A stretch of DNA of 64,000 nucleotides from Alphaproteobacteria bacterium (GCA_964291395.2 OZ219858.1:928001-992000), one strand, 5' to 3'; positions 3 to 55,146 are shown, numbered from the stretch's first letter. Notes: generated from the letters alone by a model not told the origin. A program made the numbers and translations.

Positions 3-560
3 ATCATTCCGGGCTACGAGCCCGGCAGCGGCGATCCAGAAAAGGACCAGGCCCTGCAGGACATCGGCAAGATGTTCGGCGGCCGCATACCCAACTTCCA
101 CAAGGTGCTCGCCAATTCGCTCGCCGTGGTCAATGCCTTCGAGGCCATGCGGCGTCACCTGCAGAAGACCAGGTTGCGTCCCATCGAGCGCGAGATCGTC
201 TCGGTCGAGGTCTCGCGCCGGACGAAGTGCCGTTACTGCATGTCGGCGCATTCGAACTTCGCCAAACGGATGAGGATGAGCCGGGAGGACATTGCCGCCA
301 TGCGGGAGGGACGTCCCATGTCCCATCCGCGTCATGCGCTCGTGCAGCGTGCCGCCATGCGCCTCTGGGATACGCAAGGTCGCCTGTCGGAAGAGGAGAT
401 CAAGGAATTCGACGACGAGGGGCTGTCGGCGGCGGAGCTGCTGGAGATCATCTCCGTCATCGGCTGGTACGTGACCTCGACCCTGACCAACAACCTCGCG
501 CGCACCGAGATCGATCCGGAGTTCCTCTTCGAACAGGACGATCACGACGTCGCGGCTTGA
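3..560 (+). CDS. AhpD/carboxymuconolactone decarboxylase-family peroxidase-like protein (5' end probably outside window)
   Basis: EIVSVEVSRRTKCRYCMSAH matches the AhpD CxxC..H motif; the frame is open from nt 3 (IIPGYEPGSGDPEKDQALQDIGKMFGG), upstream of the ATG at 72. Confidence 0.85.
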   Translation: MIPGYEPGSGDPEKDQALQDIGKMFGGRIPNFHKVLANSLAVVNAFEAMRRHLQKTRLRPIEREIVSVEVSRRTKCRYCMSAHSNFAKRMRMSREDIAAMREGRPMSHPRHALVQRAAMRLWDTQGRLSEEEIKEFDDEGLSAAELLEIISVIGWYVTSTLTNNLARTEIDPEFLFEQDDHDVAA

Positions 561-572
561 CACGGGCCGGTC

Positions 573-3449
573 ATGGTGGCTGGGCATGACGTCGAGACGT
601 CGCCTCGCGTTTCCGACGAGGTGAAGTTCACGACCTGCTACATGTGTGCCTGCCGCTGCGGCATCAAGGTTCACCTCAAGGACGGGCAGATCCGATACAT
701 AGAGGGCAACCGCAACCATCCCGTCAATCGCGGCGTGCTTTGTGCCAAGGGCTCGGCCGGGATCATGCACCTCAACTCTCCCGCCCGGCTGACCAAGCCC
801 CTGCGGCGCGTCGGAGAGCGCGGCTCGGGCGAGTTCGAGGAAATCGAATGGGAGGAGGCGCTCGATCTTGCGACCGCTTGGCTGGCACGGGCGCGCGCCA
901 CCAATCCGCATCGCCTCGCCTTCTTTACGGGGCGCGACCAGAGCCAGGCGCTCACATCCTGGTGGGCGATGCAGTTCGGTACGCCCAACTACGCGGCCCA
1001 TGGCGGGTTTTGTTCCGTGAACATGGCCGCTGCGGGCCTCTACACCGTTGGCAGTGCCTTCTGGGAATTCGGCGAACCCGACTGGGAGCACACACGCTAT
1101 CTGATGATGTTCGGCGTTGCCGAGGACCACGACTCCAATCCAATCAAGATGGGTATCGGTCGCCTCAAGGCCCGTGGTGTCAAGTTCGTCTCGGTCAATC
1201 CGGTGCGCACGGGGTATTCCGCGGTTGCCGATGAATGGTTGGGTGTCACACCCGGCACGGATGGGCTTTTTGTGTTTGCGCTGATCCACGAACTGCTCCG
1301 TGCCGGCAAAGTCGACGTCGACTACCTGAGCCGCTACACGAATGCGTCCTGGCTGGTGATTGACGATCCCGGGGCCGAGGACGACGGACTGTTCGCGCGG
1401 GACGCCGCCGACCGGCCCGTGTGCTGGGACCGCAGGACGGAAAGCGCGCGCGACGCGCTCAGGGCCGGCAATGAGCCGGCCCTGAAGGGAACGTTCTCTC
1501 TGTCGGACGGCCGGCAGGCGCGTCCCGCATTTCACTTGCTGGCGGAGCGCTACCTCGATTCCCAGTACGCACCCGATGCCGTAGCACCACGGGTGGGTAT
1601 CGCGGCCGCGACTATCAGACGCATTGCCGCCGAGTTGGCTCATGCCGCCTTTGCCCAGGAAGTGGTCATCGAGCGGCCATGGACCGATTACACCGGGCGG
1701 CGGTACGAGCGTATGGTCGGTCGACCAGTCAGCATGCACGCCATGCGGGGGATTTCGGCCCACTCCAACGGTTTTCACACCTGCCGCGCTATCCATGTGC
1801 TTCAGGTCCTGCTCGGCAGCGTCGATACGCCGGGCGGCTGGCGTTACAAGGCGCCCTATCCGAAGTCGCTCGAGTCCCTGCCGCGTCCGTTTGGCCGGCC
1901 CGAGGACGTTTCTCCCAACAGCCCCCTGCCGGGGCCGCACCTGGGCTTTCCGCGTGGCCCTGAAGACCTGTTGATCGACGACGACGGCACGCCCCAGCGC
2001 ATCGACAAGGCTTTCTCATGGGAGGCGCCGCTCGCTGCCCACGGCATGATGCATTCGGTGATCTCGAACGCTTTCCGGGGAGACCCATATCCGATCGACA
2101 CGTTGTTCATGTACATGGCCAACATGGCTTGGAATTCGGCCATGAACACGGCCGAGACCATTCAGATGCTGACGGAGAAGGAGGGCGCGACAGACGAGTA
2201 CAAGATTCCGCGGATCATCTATTCCGATGCCTTCTATTCCGAGATGGTGGCCTATGCGGATCTGGTACTGCCCGACACGACGTATCTCGAACGTTGGGAC
2301 TGCATTTCGCTTCTGGATCGGCCGATCAGCAACGCTGAATCCGCCAACGACGCGATCCGCCAGCCCGTCGTGGCACCGGACCGCGATGTGCGTCCATTCC
2401 AGGACATCTTGCTCGATCTTGGTGCGCGTCTCGGCTTGCCGGGGATGGTCGATGATCAGGGCAATCCCCGCTATCCAGGTGGCTATCGCGATTACATGAT
2501 CAATCACGAGCGGCGGCCAGGGATCGGCATGCTGTCCGGCTGGCGCGGCGCCAACGGCGTGATGAGCGGCACCGGACCTCCCAACCCGGACCAGGTACAA
2601 CGTTACATCGACAACGAGTGCTTCTGGCAGGGAAAGATCCCTGGGGAGGCTCAGTATTTCAAGCACGTCAACGCGGCTTACCTCGCCTATGCGGAGGGGA
2701 TGGGATTCGTGGCCGATTGTTCGCCGGTCATCCTGCAGCTCTACAGCGAGGAACTTCAAAGATTTCGCCTCGCCGCACGCGGATGCGGAACTGAGCGGCC
2801 GCCCGAGAAGCATCGCGAGCGCATCGAGACCTACTTCGACCCACTTCCGTTCTGGTACCGGCCATTCGAGGAGGCGCTCGAAACCGCGGACCGCTTTCGG
2901 CTCCATGCGGTGACGCAGCGGCCGATGGCGATGTACCACTCGTGGGGCTCACAGAATGCCTGGCTCCGGCAAATTCACGCCGCCAACCGCCTCTACGTCC
3001 CGCGAACTCTGGCGCTGTCGCTCGGGATCGAGGACGAAGATTGGGTCTGGGTTGAGAGCCGCAACGGTAGGATCAAGGCGCGCGTAAGACTCATGGAAGG
3101 GGTCAACCCGCACACCATCTGGACATGGAATGCTATCGGCAAGCGTTCCGGTGCCTGGAACCTCGCCGACGATTCGCCCGAATCCCGAGAGGGGTTCCTC
3201 CTGAACCACTTGATCCACGAGTTGCTGCCTGCACGTGAAAGTGGGTACCGCTACAGCAATTCCGATCCGGTTACGGGACAGGCTGCATGGTACGACCTGC
3301 GTGTCCGTATCGAGAAGGCGGCCGCGGACGAGCAGGGGGAATCGGCGCCGCAATTCGGGTCGGTTCGAACGAGCGCCGGATTGAGCGGACGTCCGGCCCT
3401 GCTGCGCTATGGCGTGGAACCGAGGATCAAGGAGAGGGCCAGCCCATGA
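573..3449 (+). CDS. soeA: Sulfite dehydrogenase molybdopterin subunit (DMSO reductase family)
   Basis: N-terminal TCYMCACRCG...CAKG 4Fe-4S motif, no Tat signal, 958 aa, AAHGGFCSVNMA and YHSWGSQNAWLRQI motifs; followed by Fe-S and membrane-anchor genes. Confidence 0.9.
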   Translation: MVAGHDVETSPRVSDEVKFTTCYMCACRCGIKVHLKDGQIRYIEGNRNHPVNRGVLCAKGSAGIMHLNSPARLTKPLRRVGERGSGEFEEIEWEEALDLATAWLARARATNPHRLAFFTGRDQSQALTSWWAMQFGTPNYAAHGGFCSVNMAAAGLYTVGSAFWEFGEPDWEHTRYLMMFGVAEDHDSNPIKMGIGRLKARGVKFVSVNPVRTGYSAVADEWLGVTPGTDGLFVFALIHELLRAGKVDVDYLSRYTNASWLVIDDPGAEDDGLFARDAADRPVCWDRRTESARDALRAGNEPALKGTFSLSDGRQARPAFHLLAERYLDSQYAPDAVAPRVGIAAATIRRIAAELAHAAFAQEVVIERPWTDYTGRRYERMVGRPVSMHAMRGISAHSNGFHTCRAIHVLQVLLGSVDTPGGWRYKAPYPKSLESLPRPFGRPEDVSPNSPLPGPHLGFPRGPEDLLIDDDGTPQRIDKAFSWEAPLAAHGMMHSVISNAFRGDPYPIDTLFMYMANMAWNSAMNTAETIQMLTEKEGATDEYKIPRIIYSDAFYSEMVAYADLVLPDTTYLERWDCISLLDRPISNAESANDAIRQPVVAPDRDVRPFQDILLDLGARLGLPGMVDDQGNPRYPGGYRDYMINHERRPGIGMLSGWRGANGVMSGTGPPNPDQVQRYIDNECFWQGKIPGEAQYFKHVNAAYLAYAEGMGFVADCSPVILQLYSEELQRFRLAARGCGTERPPEKHRERIETYFDPLPFWYRPFEEALETADRFRLHAVTQRPMAMYHSWGSQNAWLRQIHAANRLYVPRTLALSLGIEDEDWVWVESRNGRIKARVRLMEGVNPHTIWTWNAIGKRSGAWNLADDSPESREGFLLNHLIHELLPARESGYRYSNSDPVTGQAAWYDLRVRIEKAAADEQGESAPQFGSVRTSAGLSGRPALLRYGVEPRIKERASP

Positions 3450-4180
3450 CGAGCCTGCCCGACATCCCGACGCTCAAGCGCCTCGGCCTCGTCATCGATC
3501 TTGACACCTGTGTCGGATGTCACGCCTGTGCCGTGAACTGCAAGGAATGGAACACCGGCGGCTACCATGCTCCGCTTACCGACGAGGCGCCCTACGGCAC
3601 CGACCCGTCGGGCGTTTGGCTCAACAGGATCCATACATTCGAGGCAGGTGAAGGCGAGGGCAGCCGTCTGGTGCATTTCCCCAAGTCATGCCTCCATTGC
3701 GAGGACGCGCCCTGTGTCACCGTGTGCCCCACGGGGGCCTCCTACAAGCGGACCGAGGACGGCATCGTGCTCGTGGACGAGGACTTGTGCATCGGCTGCA
3801 AGCTGTGTTCGTGGGCCTGTCCCTATGGCGCGCGCGAATACGACCGGGACGCGGGAGTGATGAAGAAGTGCACCCTCTGTATCGACCGCATCTACAACGA
3901 GAACCTGGACGAGGTTGACCGGGTGCCCGCCTGCGTCGCCACCTGCCCCGCCTCGGCGCGCCACTTCGGAGATCTTGGCGACCCACAGTCGAAGGTCTCC
4001 AAACTCGTCGCCGACCGTGGCGGGTACGATCTGATGCCCGAGATGGAGACCGGGCCGGTCAACAAGTACCTGCCGCCCAGGCCACGGGCCACGGAGGGCG
4101 GAGGCGCGCAATCGGTGCCCGAGCTCAAGACGGCGGCAGGCGGGTTCCTGGGCTGGCTTGACCGAATATTGTCGGGCTGA
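3446..4180 (+). CDS. soeB: Sulfite dehydrogenase Fe-S subunit
   Basis: ATGA overlap with soeA; CVGCHAC, CLHCEDAPC, CIGCKLC and CTLC ferredoxin motifs. Confidence 0.9.
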   Translation: MTSLPDIPTLKRLGLVIDLDTCVGCHACAVNCKEWNTGGYHAPLTDEAPYGTDPSGVWLNRIHTFEAGEGEGSRLVHFPKSCLHCEDAPCVTVCPTGASYKRTEDGIVLVDEDLCIGCKLCSWACPYGAREYDRDAGVMKKCTLCIDRIYNENLDEVDRVPACVATCPASARHFGDLGDPQSKVSKLVADRGGYDLMPEMETGPVNKYLPPRPRATEGGGAQSVPELKTAAGGFLGWLDRILSG

Positions 4181-4186
4181 CACGCC

Positions 4187-5134
4187 ATGCACCCGGCGTA
4201 TTCCGTCATCTTCTTCACCACGGCATCGGGAATGGGGTACGGCCTCCTGGCGTTGTTGGGCCTCTATGCGGCGAGTGGCCTGATCCCTGCGGAGCGTTGG
4301 TTCGGCGCTACCGCGCTGACGCTCGCACTTGGGCTGATCACCTGTGGATTGTTGTCGTCCACGTTCCATCTTGGGCATCCGGAACGGGCTTGGCGTGCCG
4401 TGACGCAATGGCGATCGTCTTGGTTGTCGAGAGAGGGGATAGCGGCCCTCGTTACCTACATCCCGACAGTTCTATTCGCCGCTGGCTGGCTCGTTGTCCA
4501 GAAGACAACTGGTTGGTGGGGCGTGCTCGGTGTTCTCTCCGCCGCGGGAGCGGCGGTCACCGTCTACTGCACGGGAATGATCTACGCCTCGTTGCGCGCC
4601 ATTCCCCGGTGGCACAACCGGTGGGTTGTACCCAATTATCTGGTCCTTGCGCTGCTGACGGGCGGTGTCTGTTTTGATGTACTCACGCGCGTATTCGGTG
4701 TGCAACGGCCCGAGTCCGCACTACTGGTTTCGCTTGTGGTCGCCGGCGGCTGGCTGCTCAAGGGGATCTACTGGCGCCGGATCGACACTGCGCCCACCGT
4801 GAGCACGTCAGCCAGCGCTACCGGGTTGGGTATCTTCGGCGAGGTTCGTCTCCTTGATCCGCCTCACACCCAAGTCAACTATCTGCAACAGGAGATGGGG
4901 TTTCGGATTGCCCGCAAGCACGCTCGCAAGCTGCGGCGTATCGCTATCACCCTGACCTTTGCCGTACCGCTCGTCCTGTCACTCCTGTTGCTTGCACTGC
5001 CGCCCGTGCCTGCGATCATCGCTGCCGCCCTGTCCTGTTTGAGTTGCACGTTCGGCGTGATCATCGAACGCTGGCTGTTCTTCGCCGAGGCCGAACATGT
5101 CGTCACGCTCTACTACGGTGCACGGGATGTGTAG
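4187..5134 (+). CDS. soeC: Sulfite dehydrogenase membrane anchor (DmsC/NrfD-like)
   Basis: MHPAYSVIFFT start, HLGHPERAWRA..SWLSRE and ERWLFFAEA motifs, multiple TM helices. Confidence 0.9.
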   Translation: MHPAYSVIFFTTASGMGYGLLALLGLYAASGLIPAERWFGATALTLALGLITCGLLSSTFHLGHPERAWRAVTQWRSSWLSREGIAALVTYIPTVLFAAGWLVVQKTTGWWGVLGVLSAAGAAVTVYCTGMIYASLRAIPRWHNRWVVPNYLVLALLTGGVCFDVLTRVFGVQRPESALLVSLVVAGGWLLKGIYWRRIDTAPTVSTSASATGLGIFGEVRLLDPPHTQVNYLQQEMGFRIARKHARKLRRIAITLTFAVPLVLSLLLLALPPVPAIIAAALSCLSCTFGVIIERWLFFAEAEHVVTLYYGARDV

Positions 5135-5186
5135 TGTTCATTTGGCCCGCCGGTTGTGCCCTTGCCGCCCTTGATGACTCTCAGGC

Positions 5187-5300
5187 CGCTCGATCTTGCG
5201 ACCGTGTGGCTGGCACGGACGCGCGCCACCAATCCGCATCGCCTCGCCTTCTTTACGGGGCGCGACCAGAGCCAGGCGTTCACATCCTGGTGGGGGATGC
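5187..5300 (+). repeat. 114-bp decayed direct copy of an internal soeA segment (859-972)
   Basis: Manual alignment at offset 4328: 109/114 identical, no gaps. Confidence 0.95.
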
Positions 5301-49042: not shown

Positions 49043-49893
49043 CGCTCCCGACCGAAGATCGACGGAATCACGCCGCCAACTGGTTTCGTCAGTTGCGGGA
49101 TGACATCTGCGCGGATTTCGAGAGACTGGAGGACGTCTATGGCGGACCGTTGTCCGACCGGCCGGCTGGCCGGTTCGAGCGGCGGGAGTGGTCGCGCGGC
49201 GGGGATGGCGGCGGCGGCGTGATGTCGATCATGCGCGGCCGCGTCTTCGAAAAGGTTGGCGTCAACGTCTCGACCGTGCACGGCGAGTTCTCGGAGGAGT
49301 TCCGCGACAGCATCCCGGGGGCCGAGGAGGACCCGCGATTTTGGGCGGCCGGCATATCGCTGGTGGCGCACATGCAGTCTCCTCACGTGCCGGCGGTGCA
49401 TATGAATACCCGGCACATCGTGACCACGAGAGCATGGTTCGGCGGCGGCGCCGACCTCACGCCGGCGGTTCCCAACGACACGGATGCGCGGGAATTTCAT
49501 GCCGAACTGAAGAAGGCCTGTGATTTCCATGATCCCACCTACTATCCGAGCTTCAAGCAGGCCTGCGACGAGTACTTTCATCTGACCCATCGCGACGAAC
49601 CCCGAGGGGTGGGCGGTATTTTCTTCGACTATCACGACACCGGCGACTGGATGACGGATTTCGCCTTCACCCGGGACGTCGGTCTCGCCGTCAGCGAGGT
49701 CTTTCCGCGCATCGTGCGCCGTCATATGAACAAGACCTGGACCAGGGAGGAACGCGAGCATCTGCTCGTCCGCCGCGGACGCTATGTCGAATTCAACCTG
49801 TTGTACGACCGCGGCACTCAGTTCGGTCTGAAAACGGGCGGCAACGTCGAGGCGATTCTGATGTCGCTGCCGCCCGAGGTGAAATGGCCGTGA
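49039..49893 (+). CDS. hemF: Oxygen-dependent coproporphyrinogen III oxidase
   Basis: [38 protein letters not shown]. Confidence 0.97.
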
Positions 49894-49957
49894 GCGCGTC
49901 AGCCAGGGCGGAAGCCGAGCTGGAATTGTCGGGGGAGACGGCTCAGGGGCGCAGGGC

Positions 49958-51127
49958 ATGACCGGACTCACATACGAAGACTCGCCCGTCGCGGTCCGGG
50001 AGGGGCTGGCCATCGCGCACCGGCACGCTTGGCGGCGACTTGCCGCACCCGGGACGTGGTGGAGCGGGCCGACGCGGGTGGCGGTCGCCGCCGAGGTGCG
50101 GAATGCTGCGGCCTGCGGGCTGTGCCGGCGGCGCAAGGAAGCTCTGTCGCCCTATACGCTCGGCGGAGTCCACGACAGCCTGGGATCGCTGCCCGAAAGC
50201 CACGTCGACGTGATCCACCGGATCGTCACCGACCCGGGGCGGCTCAGCAAGACCTGGCTGGACGACGTTCTGGCGAGCTGCCTGAGCGACGCCGAGTATG
50301 TCGAGACCGTCGGCGTCATCGTCAATGTCATGGCGATCGACCAGTTTCGCCGCGGCATCGGCATGGCGCCCGCGCCGCTGCCCGAGTCTCTTCCCGGCGA
50401 GCCCATGCGGGTGCGTCCCCGGGGCGCCAAGCCCGGCGCCGCCTGGGTGCCGCTGCTGGCGCCGGAAGATGTCACCGAGGCGGAGGCCGACCTCTACCCC
50501 GACGTGCCCTTGATCACCTACGTGCAGCGGGCGCTGAGCCTCGTACCCGAGGAGGCCCGTGCCTACAACGCCATCGGCTGCGAGCAGTACACGCCGACGG
50601 GCGCGAGCTGGGACTTCGAGAGCCGGATGCGCGAGATCAGCTACCAGCAGATCGAGCTCGTCGCCTCGAAGGTCTCGGTCCTCAACGGATGCTTCTACTG
50701 AACGGCCGGCCATTCGGCGAGGCTCCGTGAGAGCCTGAGGCGTGACGGCCGGGACAGCGACCTTCAGATCCTCGTGGACGTGTCGTCGGACGACGGGGCG
50801 GTGCCGCACGCGGCTCTGCTCGTCCGCTTCACCGAGGCCTTGATCACCGGTGACGGCGCGGCGCTGGATGCCGCCCGCGAAGAGATCGTCGAGAGGATGG
50901 GGGCAGGCGCCCTGGTCGATGCCGCGGGCGTCGCGGGCGCATTCGAGGGCTTCACCCGCATCGCCGACGCCATCGGCATTCCGACGGAAACGGTCAAGGT
51001 CGAGATGACGGAGGACTTCCGGGCCGGACTCGGCGCCGATTCGTTCACCGGCGCGCGGAACGTCGGCGACGCGCCGCTGCGCGCGGACGCCGAGGCGGCC
51101 TATTGGGGCACCGCGCGGGTGAAGTAA
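49958..51127 (+). CDS. AhpD/CMD-like selenoprotein (389 aa, UGA read as Sec at codon 248)
   Basis: ORFs 49958-50701 and 50774-51127 are in one frame, separated only by TGA 50699-50701 inside ELVASKVSVLNGCFY-U-TAGH; a hairpin follows. Confidence 0.85.
50702..50752 (+). promoter_or_regulatory. Candidate bacterial SECIS element
   Basis: Upper stem AGGCTC (50720-25)/GAGCCT (50731-36) with loop CGTGA; lower stem CCGGCC (50706-11)/GGCCGG (50747-52). Confidence 0.7.
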
Positions 51128-51191
51128 GGCATCCGTGTGCGGCCTGGATTCTCGGGACCGTGTGTCCACCCCCTCCGGTGAAGTCAGGCGC

Positions 51192-51857
51192 CTACAGCGT
51201 GATTTCACGGCGGTCGTAGGCGCGTCGCCACTTGCCGTCGAAATCCTCGTCGAAGACGAATGCCTCGTCCGTGGTCGCGGTGACCCAGGCCTCGCGGTCA
51301 AGCTCGGATTCGAGCTGCCCCGGCGACCAACCGGCATAGCCGAGCGCCAGGATGCTCTTGCGCGGCCCCTCTCCCCTGGCCAGGGCGCGCACGAGATCGG
51401 CGTCCTCGCCCGGCGTCATGGCGAACACGTCGTCGACCAAGACCGTGTGCTGGCCGACGTAGTCCGGGGTGTGCAGGACGAAGCCGCGCCCGAAATCGAC
51501 GGGTCCGCCAAAATGGATGCGGATGGTGCGGCCGCTCGACTCGATCGGCGGCTCCCCCTCGAGCCGCAGCTTGCTGACGGGCTCCACGCCCAGCACCTTG
51601 TTGATGATCAGGCCGAAGGCGCCCTGCTCGTCATGTGCGACCATGTAGATCACGGACTCCTCGAAACGCGGATCCGACATGTCCGGTGCCGCGATCAGCA
51701 GCTGGCCGGTCAGGAACTTGGGGTGAGGCGCGCTCCTCGGGTCCTGGTCGGCCGACGCCAGAGGCGGAATTGCTGGCGCGAGGAGGCAGACGGCGCCGGC
51801 GACCGTGCCGGCGATCACCGCACTCCGCACTCCCGTCCGTGGTCCAACCCGTGCCAT
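51192..51857 (-). CDS. YqgE/AlgH-family protein with signal-peptide-like N-terminus
   Basis: GQLLIA.P.M.DPRF..SVI, GLIINK, GGPV..GRGFVLH, LGYAGWSPGQLE.E. Confidence 0.9.
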   Translation of the reverse strand: MARVGPRTGVRSAVIAGTVAGAVCLLAPAIPPLASADQDPRSAPHPKFLTGQLLIAAPDMSDPRFEESVIYMVAHDEQGAFGLIINKVLGVEPVSKLRLEGEPPIESSGRTIRIHFGGPVDFGRGFVLHTPDYVGQHTVLVDDVFAMTPGEDADLVRALARGEGPRKSILALGYAGWSPGQLESELDREAWVTATTDEAFVFDEDFDGKWRRAYDRREITL

Positions 51858-52695: not shown

Positions 52696-55146
52696 GTGAC
52701 CCTGCCGCTTACCTTGGCCGTCGCCCTCCTCTCCGGCGCCGTCATGGGCTACGAGATCCTGCTGATGCGGTTCTTCTCCATCGCCCAGTGGCACCATTTC
52801 GCCTACATGGTCATCGGGCTGGCGCTGCTCGGGTTCGGTGTCAGCGGGACGTTCCTGGTCTTCGCGCGGGAACGCCTGTCGGCGCGTTTCGTCCCGGCGT
52901 TCGCGACGTTCGCGGGCCTCTTCGGCGTTACCGTCGTCGGCGCGACTTCAACCGCCCAGCTCGTCCCCTTCAATGCGCTGGAAGTCGTGTGGGACCCTTG
53001 GCAATTCGCCTACCTCTTCGTCATCTATCTGCTGCTGGCCGGGCCGTTTTTCTGTGCGGCGACGAGCATCGGCCTCACCCTCTACGTACTCCGGTCCGGC
53101 ACCGCGCAGGTGTACCGCGCCGACCTCATGGGCGCGGGCCTCGGTGCCGCGGCGATCGTCGCGGTGATGTTCCTTCTGCCGATCGACCGATGCCTGGCGG
53201 CCCTGGGCGGGGTAGGACTGGTTGCGGCCGGATTGGCCCTCGCCTCGGAACGGCGGACGCGGAGACCCGCGGCCCTGTGCATCGTCGGAGCCGTAGCGGC
53301 CGTGGCCTTCCTGCCGGACGAGCCATTGATGCCCCGTCTCAATCCCTACAAGGCCCTGGGACAGGCGTTGACCGTGCCCGGCGCCGAGATCGTGTCGGAG
53401 GTGTCGGGTCCGCTGGGCCTGCTCACCGCCGTGCGGAACGACGAGGTGCCCCTTCGCCATGCGCCGGGCCTCAGCCTGAACGCGAACGCGGATATTCCCG
53501 AACAGCTCGCCGTCTACACGGACGGCGACGCCCCGACCGCGGTGACCCGCCACGACGGAGCCCTGTCGTCGTCGGCGTATCTCGACTGGCGGACGGCGGC
53601 GTTGCCCTACCACCTCGTGGCGGAGCCGCGTGTCCTCGTCCTCGGCACGGGCGGTGGTGACGAGGTTCTGATGGCCCTCCACCACCGGGCACGCTCCGTC
53701 GACGCCATCGAGCTCAATCCGCAGATGGCCCGTCTTGTCGGCCGGGACCACGCCGAATTCGGTGGACGGATCTTCGAACGGCCCCATGTCTCGCTTCACG
53801 TCGGCGAGGGGCGCAGCTTCGCCGCGACGACGGACGGGGCTTACGACCTCATCCAGATCTCGCTGCTCGATCCCTTCTCGGCGGCGGCCTCGGGCCTGCA
53901 CGCTCTCAACGAGAGCACGCTCTATACGGTGGAGGCGTTCGAGACCTTCCTCGGACGCCTGACGCCGGACGGCGTGCTGGCTGTCACCCGCTGGATGCGC
54001 CTGCCGCCGCGGGGCAGCCTCAAGCTCGCGGCCACGGCGCTCGCCGCTCTGGAACGGACCGGCGCGTCCCGCCCGCGGGACCACATCGCCGCCGTACGGG
54101 CCTGGAACGCCGTCACGCTGGTGGTCGCGAAGAGGCCGCTGACGCAGGACCGGATCTCGATGGCACGAACGTTCGCGAACGTCCGGTCCTTCGACCTCGC
54201 CTACCTTCCGGGGATCGCGGCCGACGAGACCAACCGCTTCAACGTGATCGGCACGCCCACGGTCTACCAGGGAATCGACGCCTTGGCGGGGAGCAGGGCC
54301 GCCGAGTTCGTCGAGTCCTACCCCTTCGACATCGCGCCCGCCACGGACGACCGCCCCTATTTCTTCCATTTCTTCAAGTGGCGCCTTCTGCCGGAGCTTC
54401 TGGAGATGCGTACGGCGGGCGGCATCCCGTTCATCGAATGGGGGTATGTCATTCTCCTGGCGACGCTCGTCCAGGCGCTGTTGGCGAGCGCCGCCCTGAT
54501 CCTGCTGCCGCTGACGGTGCTTCGAGGCGGCGCGCCCTCGGAATCCAAAGGCCTGTTCTGGTCGACGGCGGCTTGCTTCGGTGCCATCGGGCTCGCCTTC
54601 CTGTTCATCGAGATTTCGTTTATGCAACGCTTCGTGCTGCTGCTCGGCCACCCCCTGTACGCCGTCGTCGTGGTCCTCACGGGCTTTCTGCTGTTCGCTG
54701 GCCTGGGCAGCGGCTGGTCCGCCAAGCTGCGCCGTCGTACGCCCGAAAGAGCCGTTTCCTGGGCCGTCGCCGGGATCGTCGGGTTGGCGTTCCTCTATCT
54801 TGCCTTCCTGCCCGCCGTGTTCGAGGTCCTGAGACCGCTGCCGGAGGTGGCCAAGGTCGCCGTGTCCCTGGCGCTCATCGCGCCGCTCGCTTTCGCGATG
54901 GGGATGCCGTTCCCGCTCGCGCTCCACCGTCTGGGGGAGGCGTCTCCGGGGCTGGTGCCGTGGGCCTGGGGGATCAACGGCTGCGCCTCGGTCGTCAGCG
55001 CGGTGCTCGCCGTGCTGATCGCCATCGACTGGGGGTTCGATGCCGTCATTCTGGCCGCCTGCGGACTCTATGCCGGGGCGGCGATCGTGTACGGCGTGCG
55101 TCTGGGCAAGGCTCCACCGATCGTGAGCCGAGATTCCGGCACATGA
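52696..55146 (+). CDS. Polytopic membrane protein with central spermidine-synthase-like SAM-binding domain
   Basis: TM bundles at both ends; VLVLGTGGG, IELNP, EGRSF, YDLIQ, YTVEAF, TDDRPYF, WAWGING. Confidence 0.85.
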   Translation: MTLPLTLAVALLSGAVMGYEILLMRFFSIAQWHHFAYMVIGLALLGFGVSGTFLVFARERLSARFVPAFATFAGLFGVTVVGATSTAQLVPFNALEVVWDPWQFAYLFVIYLLLAGPFFCAATSIGLTLYVLRSGTAQVYRADLMGAGLGAAAIVAVMFLLPIDRCLAALGGVGLVAAGLALASERRTRRPAALCIVGAVAAVAFLPDEPLMPRLNPYKALGQALTVPGAEIVSEVSGPLGLLTAVRNDEVPLRHAPGLSLNANADIPEQLAVYTDGDAPTAVTRHDGALSSSAYLDWRTAALPYHLVAEPRVLVLGTGGGDEVLMALHHRARSVDAIELNPQMARLVGRDHAEFGGRIFERPHVSLHVGEGRSFAATTDGAYDLIQISLLDPFSAAASGLHALNESTLYTVEAFETFLGRLTPDGVLAVTRWMRLPPRGSLKLAATALAALERTGASRPRDHIAAVRAWNAVTLVVAKRPLTQDRISMARTFANVRSFDLAYLPGIAADETNRFNVIGTPTVYQGIDALAGSRAAEFVESYPFDIAPATDDRPYFFHFFKWRLLPELLEMRTAGGIPFIEWGYVILLATLVQALLASAALILLPLTVLRGGAPSESKGLFWSTAACFGAIGLAFLFIEISFMQRFVLLLGHPLYAVVVVLTGFLLFAGLGSGWSAKLRRRTPERAVSWAVAGIVGLAFLYLAFLPAVFEVLRPLPEVAKVAVSLALIAPLAFAMGMPFPLALHRLGEASPGLVPWAWGINGCASVVSAVLAVLIAIDWGFDAVILAACGLYAGAAIVYGVRLGKAPPIVSRDSGT

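Follow-up and report, generated by a model that had tools for sequence, protein, structure and literature searches.

The question raised by this locus is whether a single TGA codon, at positions 50699–50701, ends a gene or is decoded as an amino acid in the middle of a longer one. In the window (by which we mean the whole 64,000-nucleotide stretch of alphaproteobacterial DNA analyzed here, with all features below on its plus strand), an ATG at 49958 starts a 247-codon ORF whose last residues, ...VSVLNGCFY, are followed directly by this TGA. When the codon is read as U, 141 further codons are open, up to a TAA at 51125–51127, and the ORFs at 49958–50701 and 50774–51127 become a single protein of 389 amino acids. 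A preliminary description of the locus had proposed this fusion of the shorter frame with the one behind it, and every part of that layout was verified. Our answer, which we hold at a probability of roughly 0.93–0.95, is that positions 49958–51127 contain one complete gene, of 389 codons with selenocysteine (Sec) at codon 248 and a TAA stop, encoding a predicted selenoprotein of the NCBIfam family NF041238.

The reading frame and its family

By itself, the open frame past the TGA is a weak cue in a window this rich in GC (63%). Among stop-to-stop frames of at least 150 codons, 22 of the 113 that terminate in TGA remain open for at least 141 codons beyond it. Base composition by codon position is alike on the two sides of the TGA, with GC1/GC2/GC3 values of 0.70/0.51/0.89 upstream and 0.74/0.53/0.89 downstream. 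The gene immediately upstream, which had been named as hemF, does encode coproporphyrinogen III oxidase (Pfam PF01218, 308 bits), and it ends in TGA, so that TGA is an ordinary stop codon elsewhere in this genome. The Cys-version AhpD/CMD gene that had been offered as an internal control is likewise real; it lies at 72–560 of the window and encodes EIVSVEVSRRTKCRYCMSAH. It is the comparative evidence, consisting of a TGA shared among homologues, conserved sequence on either flank, covariation in a hairpin behind it, and constraint at synonymous sites, that places the observation far above chance in the sequences compared.

The read-through protein matches NF041238 at 450.5 bits (E 4.5e-135, against a cut-off of 175 bits), and the alignment runs from end to end, residues 13–364 corresponding to positions 1–356 of the 357 in the model. 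When the genome is searched with the same model, the gene is recovered at 442.1 bits with the report “1 TGA” within the match. NF041238 (AhpD_rel_CFYUT, alkylhydroperoxidase-related (seleno)protein) is a curated, equivalog-level model, and its C-x-Y-U-T motif is present here as CFYUT at residues 245–249. The window gene appears as a plain member, sharing with the family the full-length match, the motif, the in-frame UGA, and the position of the putative SECIS element, whereas its last 25 residues (365–389), which are predicted to be disordered, fall outside the model. The Pfam CMD domain (PF02627), which matches all 59 members in our alignment, rises above threshold solely on the joined protein (23.5 bits, cut-off 23); neither half passes alone.

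The family has been described before. A 2026 review (PMC13188914) equates NF041238, in its table of prokaryotic selenoproteins, with “hypothetical protein 1” of the 2005 Sargasso Sea selenoproteome, and the legend to its Figure 3 includes a predicted SECIS for the family. CxxU AhpD-like selenoproteins were recorded from the Sargasso Sea in 2005 (PMC1088965), and such proteins were listed as abundant in GOS in 2008 (PMC2398784). Curated membership together with the listing in the review makes the selenoprotein call correct rather than new. Thus, of the earlier suggestion of a hidden selenoprotein, the Sec reading holds, supported by the family model, the census of TGA codons, the hairpin, and the Sec machinery, but its novelty was overrated, the family having already been curated. 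Family, motif, and SECIS are all on record, and the window gene is an ordinary member with nothing new in kind.

The recoded codon, its RNA hairpin, and the selenocysteine machinery

If the TGA encodes Sec, it should be seen as such in relatives. A set of 61 related genomes contains nine full-length family matches, distributed over six genomes and each with a single in-frame TGA; the copy in one further genome (G003) is disrupted. In all eight relatives that were extracted, the TGA occupies the homologous codon within the C-x-Y-U-T motif. A scan of a species-level genome collection returned 62 loci, five of which were left out of the codon census: three that stop short of the site (L058, L095, and L115), one that terminates directly at the corresponding TGA (L075), and a distant match of 26% identity with Cys at the site (L116). 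The remaining 57 loci supplied 60 gene copies, in which the codon is TGA in 59 and TAG in one, a count obtained with scan patterns that may have missed Cys forms. Full-length Cys forms do exist: two of the best 120 protein matches, P0023 (with CRFC) and P0075 (with CAFC), complete a Sec/Cys pair at this position. Conservation also continues past the UGA, where T249, H252, L256, R257, and S259 show little or no variation in an alignment of 59 sequences. The pairing of Cys with UGA at codon 248, the homology on both flanks, and the conservation of the 24 codons between the two ORFs, all of which the preliminary description had singled out for inspection, were thus borne out, and none of the homologues ended at the site with UAA or UAG as a real stop.

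The sole TAG copy, at locus L104 in Modestobacter sp. DSM 44400, is itself informative. The same genome encodes a tRNA-Sec (66.9 bits in Rfam) with the anticodon CTA, which ARAGORN labels “Pyl” because of that anticodon, and selB is found on that contig as well, at a distance of ~3.3 kb. Sec encoded by UAG and a tRNA-Sec with a CUA anticodon are in print for the Geodermatophilaceae (PMC5330540). TAG is found where tRNA-Sec has a CUA anticodon; the recoded codon thus tracks the tRNA-Sec anticodon. At the level of sequence, the TAG copy is a natural control that ties this codon specifically to tRNA-Sec.

A bacterial SECIS element would be expected close behind the UGA. The candidate apical hairpin (50720–50736) consists of a 6-bp stem, AGGCTC at 50720–50725 pairing with GAGCCT at 50731–50736, and a 5-nt loop, CGUGA, at 50726–50730; the stem begins 18 nt, and its loop 24 nt, after the UGA. 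Across the family, the loop consensus is CGUGN, with G at the second position (G50727 here). In an ungapped alignment of 61 sequences spanning 60 nt from the recoded codon, RNAalifold, unaided, returned the same six pairs (columns 22–27 with 33–38) and the same 5-nt loop. In a 7-pair version of the helix, 89.5% of cells are paired, compared with 82.7 ± 1.0% in shuffles, and the covariation score is 0.228, compared with 0.133; none of 500 shuffles reached the observed value in either measure. When the partner strand was slid by 1–3 columns, these values fell to 28–52% and 0.024–0.094, respectively. The outer pairs carry the variation: pair 22–38 is CG in 23 sequences, AU in 14, UG in seven, and GC in two, and is unpaired in 15 of the 61, and pair 23–37 is UG in 46, UA in nine, CG in two, and GC in two. 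The inner four pairs are near-invariant and uninformative alone.

The hairpin lies within a conserved peptide, L-R-x-S, so that its conservation is partly at the protein level, and synonymous codon use was therefore compared. Leu256 is encoded by CTC in 61 of 61 sequences (entropy 0 bits), Arg257 by CGT in 53 and CGG in seven (0.52 bits), and Ser259 by AGC in 50 and AGT in nine (0.62 bits). By comparison, 37 other conserved Leu, Arg, Ser, Ala, Gly, Pro, Thr, or Val columns of the same genes range from 0.89 to 2.10 bits, and CGT accounts for just 4–10 of ~58 codons at other Arg columns. The frozen synonymous codons at Leu256, Arg257, and Ser259 are, judged by these codon counts, an RNA-level constraint, a comparison that addresses the protein-level share of the conservation and does not remove it.

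Other measures of RNA structure gave less. A single-sequence fold is no better than shuffles (z = −0.77, with 41 of 200 shuffles folding at least as well), and an Rfam scan of positions 49500–51600 at E values up to 10 returned nothing concerning a SECIS. The minimum free energy fold of this genome’s sequence encloses the hairpin in a lower stem, GGCCGGCC / GGCCGG (50704–50752), in which CCGGCC at 50706–50711 pairs with GGCCGG at 50747–50752. This stem is not in the RNAalifold consensus structure of the 61 sequences; it may help locally and is not a conserved feature of the family. The SECIS-like structure pointed out earlier thus divides in two: the AGGCTC/GAGCCT stem with its CGUGA loop 24 nt after the UGA is conserved, but the CCGGCC/GGCCGG stem lies outside the family consensus.

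The genome has the components needed to read such a signal. The preliminary description had asked after selA, selB, selC, and selD, and all four were found, each above its curated cut-off in profile searches of the genome: selA at 573.6 bits, selB at 425.6 bits, selD at 309.6 bits, and tRNA-Sec (selC) at 70.7 bits, the last also identified by ARAGORN as tRNA-SeC with anticodon TCA. The genes selA, selB, and selC are adjacent on one contig (C1). We considered whether the Sec trait of the genus depends on this gene and rejected the idea, as selA is present in five of five same-genus genomes, including three (G001, G002, and G004) with no family member above the cut-off. A Sec-containing formate dehydrogenase was also sought in the genome and rejected; the four TIGR01553-like matches are below the cut-off and have no in-frame stop. 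In the proposed mechanism, a ribosome arriving at the UGA at 50699–50701 would meet the hairpin GCUC-CGUGA-GAGC 18 nt downstream, which would act as a bacterial SECIS and recruit SelB with Sec-tRNA(UCA); selenocysteine would then, we infer, be incorporated in place of termination.

Two other readings of the codon can be set against this evidence. The TGA might be a true stop, either between two independent genes (of 247 and 117 amino acids) or within a pseudogene. Generic gene callers do annotate such loci in this way, 118 of the best 120 matches being ~246 amino acids, and open frames after TGA are common in the window. We nevertheless regard this reading as extremely improbable. The same codon is TGA across 57 loci of diverse lineages, and sequence conservation continues through it; CMD and NF041238 are satisfied by the joined protein only; half of the catalytic helix-turn-helix, with the active-site His252, is encoded downstream of the TGA; the 24 linker codons are conserved and are without start codon context; and the gene has a SECIS and the genome the Sec machinery. 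Alternatively, the UGA might be read through without selenocysteine, by near-cognate insertion of Trp or Cys or under a reassigned code. Low-level misinsertion of Cys or Trp at Sec UGA codons does occur under selenium limitation. As the basis of decoding here, however, this also seems very improbable, with hemF ending in TGA as a normal stop, a dedicated tRNA-Sec(UCA) adjoining selB and selA, and the codon switched to TAG where the anticodon of tRNA-Sec is CUA. We thus return to the reading of the locus as one Sec-containing gene and consider what its product may look like.

Active site and predicted fold

In AhpD proteins, the second Cys of the C-x-x-C motif is the attacking nucleophile. The UGA at 50699–50701 is predicted to place selenocysteine, U248, at just this position, given the conservation of the codon in homologues and the Sec/Cys pair. 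The surrounding active-site helix-turn-helix (50654–50713) was delineated by alignment and contains E233 (50654–50656), C245 (50690–50692), Y247 (50696–50698), U248, and H252 (50711–50713). These five residues are invariant among 59 sequences, and T249 is nearly so. The relay E233-X11-C245-F-Y247-U248-X3-H252 conforms to the PF02627 pattern Glu-X11-Cys-X-(His/Tyr)-Cys-X3-His, with Sec for the second Cys. In a published account of the AhpD proton relay (PMC3141380), the residues are Glu36/Cys48/Tyr50/Cys51/His55 in Pseudomonas aeruginosa PA0269 and Glu118/Cys130/His132/Cys133/His137 in Mycobacterium tuberculosis AhpD, and the spacing in the window protein is identical to both as given there.

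A second candidate redox center is C53-G-L-C56 (50114–50125), located by alignment in a first, divergent AhpD-like domain. This C53-x-x-C56 is invariant among eight proteobacterial members and occurs in most of the family, but is missing from a whole subgroup of the 59-sequence alignment (L105 and L107–L113), and therefore it cannot be essential to the core chemistry of the family. An hhalign comparison of the N-terminal with the C-terminal half places C53-x-x-C56 in register with C245-x-x-U248; the match is weak, at a probability of just 10.5%, so that the sequence does not show an internal duplication. The protein had been pictured as a multidomain redox protein with an N-terminal CGLC and a C-terminal CFYU; both motifs are real, but the CGLC is not family-wide.

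The AlphaFold model, built with 59 sequences, is all-helical apart from the disordered tail, with a pLDDT of 90.1 and a pTM of 0.90. Its C-terminal domain (residues 159–353) aligns over 170–180 residues with at least six AhpD-like structures in VIA-align at Z 12.7–13.9. The N-terminal domain modeled alone has a pLDDT of 92.8. In a comparison of that model with 48,161 representative chains, the top eight were all AhpD/CMD folds or the N-terminal domain of Sestrin2, at modest Z of 7.5–4.5, and unrelated folds followed from Z 4.0 down. Foldseek against the PDB gave no match at E ≤0.001, the best being 3c1l_C at 9.1e-3. For the full-length model, the best match is human Sestrin2 (5dj4/5t0n/5cuf), over residues 1–342 at Z 17.0 and rmsd 3.2 with 238–239 residues aligned, a Z that is to be read with the inflation usual for helical proteins, whose scores up to ~13–14 can, by the program’s own warning, be unspecific. 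Because the C-terminal domain, the N-terminal domain, and the whole chain all match structures of this type, the protein looks, in the model, like a tandem AhpD-like fold in one chain, a pseudo-dimer resembling Sestrin2.

Comparison with known proteins indicates how far these likenesses extend. Sestrin2 and the modeled protein would share two AhpD-like domains in tandem in a single chain; with 8–9% identity, this is a resemblance of fold only. The Pfam Sestrin family (PA26) matches none of the 59 members at E values up to 1. Sestrin2 has its redox-type Cys in the N-terminal domain; in the window protein, it is the C-terminal domain that carries the complete relay. By sequence, the solved structure closest to the window protein is Deinococcus radiodurans AhpD (6k40), at E 3.8e-16 over profile positions 148–328, with the motif LNRCVYCAVSH and a fold match of Z 13.9 and rmsd 2.8 over 176 residues; it differs as a Cys form with 197 residues in a single domain. 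M. tuberculosis AhpD (1gu9/1knc) and PA0269 (2o4d/2ijc) match in fold at Z 8.8 and Z 10.4, respectively, and have the same relay spacing, with Tyr at the x position in PA0269 as here. The window protein differs from both in its Sec at the second Cys, in a sequence similarity confined to the active-site hairpin (1gu9, E 0.0054), in having two domains in a single chain where these are homo-oligomers of single domains, and in having no ahpC nearby. The “AhpD-like 1” CxxU selenoproteins (COG2128/TIGR01926), as represented in the two environmental surveys (PMC1088965 and PMC2398784), carry CxxU in the same helix-turn-helix. The window protein matches TIGR01926 over residues 227–342 at E 1.2e-7 and 31.7 bits, below the cut-off of 81.8. 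Solved proteins of the TIGR01926 type are single-domain, of ~180–197 residues, to which NF041238 adds an N-terminal AhpD-like domain of ~150 residues and a linker.

Possible chemistry and place of the family

On the model, each chain would contain two AhpD/CMD-like helical domains, and the complete proton relay would be found solely in the C-terminal one. The U248 selenolate could be the attacking nucleophile on an oxidized substrate, either a hydroperoxide or an oxidized thiol (sulfenic acid or disulfide) in a partner protein, for instance a peroxiredoxin. Resolution of the adduct by C245 would then give a C245–U248 selenenylsulfide, and this might be re-reduced by an external thiol system or, in members that have it, by C53-x-x-C56 within the chain. 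We give peroxide- or AhpD-type thiol-selenol redox chemistry of this kind an even chance over some other chemistry. There is no peroxiredoxin or ahpC gene beside this gene in the window and none recurrent in 61 loci; among those loci, taken with 3-kb flanks, the only clusters that recur are GC-rich shadow ORFs and the family’s own genes. One neighbor cluster, from seven loci, corresponds to no Pfam family.

The alternative is that this is a real NF041238 selenoprotein with non-peroxide chemistry, for instance a reductive dehalogenase that works by Sec, or a thiol-selenol reductase for some other specific substrate, built on the AhpD fold. The debrominase Bmp8 has the AhpD fold and, at Z 13.1 over 176 residues, matches the model about as well as the peroxidase-related structures (Z 12.7–13.9). 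A peroxiredoxin partner is not encoded nearby, and the near-constant Sec (59 TGA and one TAG in 60 copies, with two Cys forms in the best 120 matches) suggests a demanding chemistry. Oppositely, the full AhpD proton relay, Glu and His included, is invariant; the closest sequence relatives are peroxidase-related, 6k40 having an E of 3.8e-16 as against 0.65 for Bmp8 (6ohi); and the neighborhood holds no pointer to halogenated substrates. On balance, we take non-peroxide chemistry to be possible and rather unlikely.

As had been anticipated, pipelines split the gene: 118 of the best 120 public protein matches are fragments of 231–285 amino acids that cover 56–63% of the query and stop around the UGA, and one match, of 98% identity, is a 247-residue call ending in ...LNGCFY. 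Among these 120, the name “hypothetical protein” is used 35 times and “alkylhydroperoxidase family enzyme” twice. The public protein collections searched thus hold the family almost wholly as shortened fragments, despite the curated model. On our reading, the correct annotation here would be one selenoprotein gene (389 amino acids, Sec248), rather than hypothetical proteins of 247 and 117 amino acids.

The family has near-constant Sec, an apparent tandem AhpD fold, and no conserved genomic partner, and in any cultivable host it would be a reasonable target for first biochemistry. A more specific and quite doubtful idea is that NF041238 is a bacterial selenoenzyme of “Sestrin-like” build, with AhpD domains in tandem in one chain, in which the C-terminal C-x-x-U would be reduced internally by the N-terminal C-x-x-C domain, the two centers forming a self-contained relay that acts on a substrate other than a classical peroxiredoxin. 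If this were true, near-obligate Sec would reflect chemistry beyond the reach of Cys, and the family could be the closest prokaryotic architectural counterpart of the eukaryotic Sestrins.

A UAG-encoded member, paralogs, and a divergent subgroup of the family

The AhpD-related selenoprotein family NF041238, to which the window protein (49958..51127, plus strand) belongs, varies in codon, copy number, and N-terminal motif. In one record, titled Modestobacter sp. DSM 44400, the Sec codon of the family member is TAG and not TGA (L104:3571-3573). The same genome encodes a tRNA-Sec with anticodon CTA (L117:1501-1596; Rfam, 66.9 bits), with selB lying ∼3.3 kb from it. UAG-encoded Sec has been published in Geodermatophilaceae for FDH and for UGSC-motif and AhpC selenoproteins (PMC5330540); the excerpted portion of that paper makes no mention of the NF041238 AhpD-related family.

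NF041238 genes occur as sets of two or three paralogs in several genomes, in some cases in tandem. The cases are loci L056 (copies at 3037-4083 and 4152-5192), L059, and L070, as well as the related genomes G008, with three copies, and G011, with two adjacent copies; every one of these copies has its own TGA and its own SECIS.

In a subgroup of loci (L105 and L107-L113) that share 29-37% identity with the window protein, the N-terminal C-x-x-C is missing, but the SECIS core and the relay residues E, C, Y, U, and H are retained. The record titles are mostly those of Acidimicrobiia and Actinomycetes MAGs; that of L111 reads Gammaproteobacteria. The N-terminal dithiol is thus no family-wide requirement in NF041238.

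Other open frames in the window

On the minus strand, a 464-aa open frame (49943..51337) spans the whole NF041238 gene. Similar shadow frames recur in related loci, where they form joint clusters in the neighbor analysis. We take the minus-strand frame to be a by-product of high GC content rather than a gene. The window starts with a Cys-type AhpD/CMD gene (72..560, plus strand), and 13 nt after it begins a 958-aa frame with a Cys-rich N terminus (573..3449, plus strand). An 816-aa frame with many hydrophobic stretches (52696..55146, plus strand) matched no Pfam family at E ≤ 0.001.

Selenoprotein genes across the genus

In G005, the closest genome of the same genus, selA is matched in two adjacent pieces (G005:C1:2288909-2290265), one covering model positions 2-240 and the other 239-447; this points to either a frameshift or an error in the assembly. 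In G003, the NF041238 gene itself is in pieces, with a TAG present besides the TGA (G003:C45:63074-64105).

Across the whole genome from which the window comes, none of the formate-dehydrogenase-alpha-like matches has an in-frame stop. Three other genomes of the genus (G001, G002, and G004) have selA although they contain no NF041238 member above the cut-off. The genus must therefore have selenoproteins besides NF041238.
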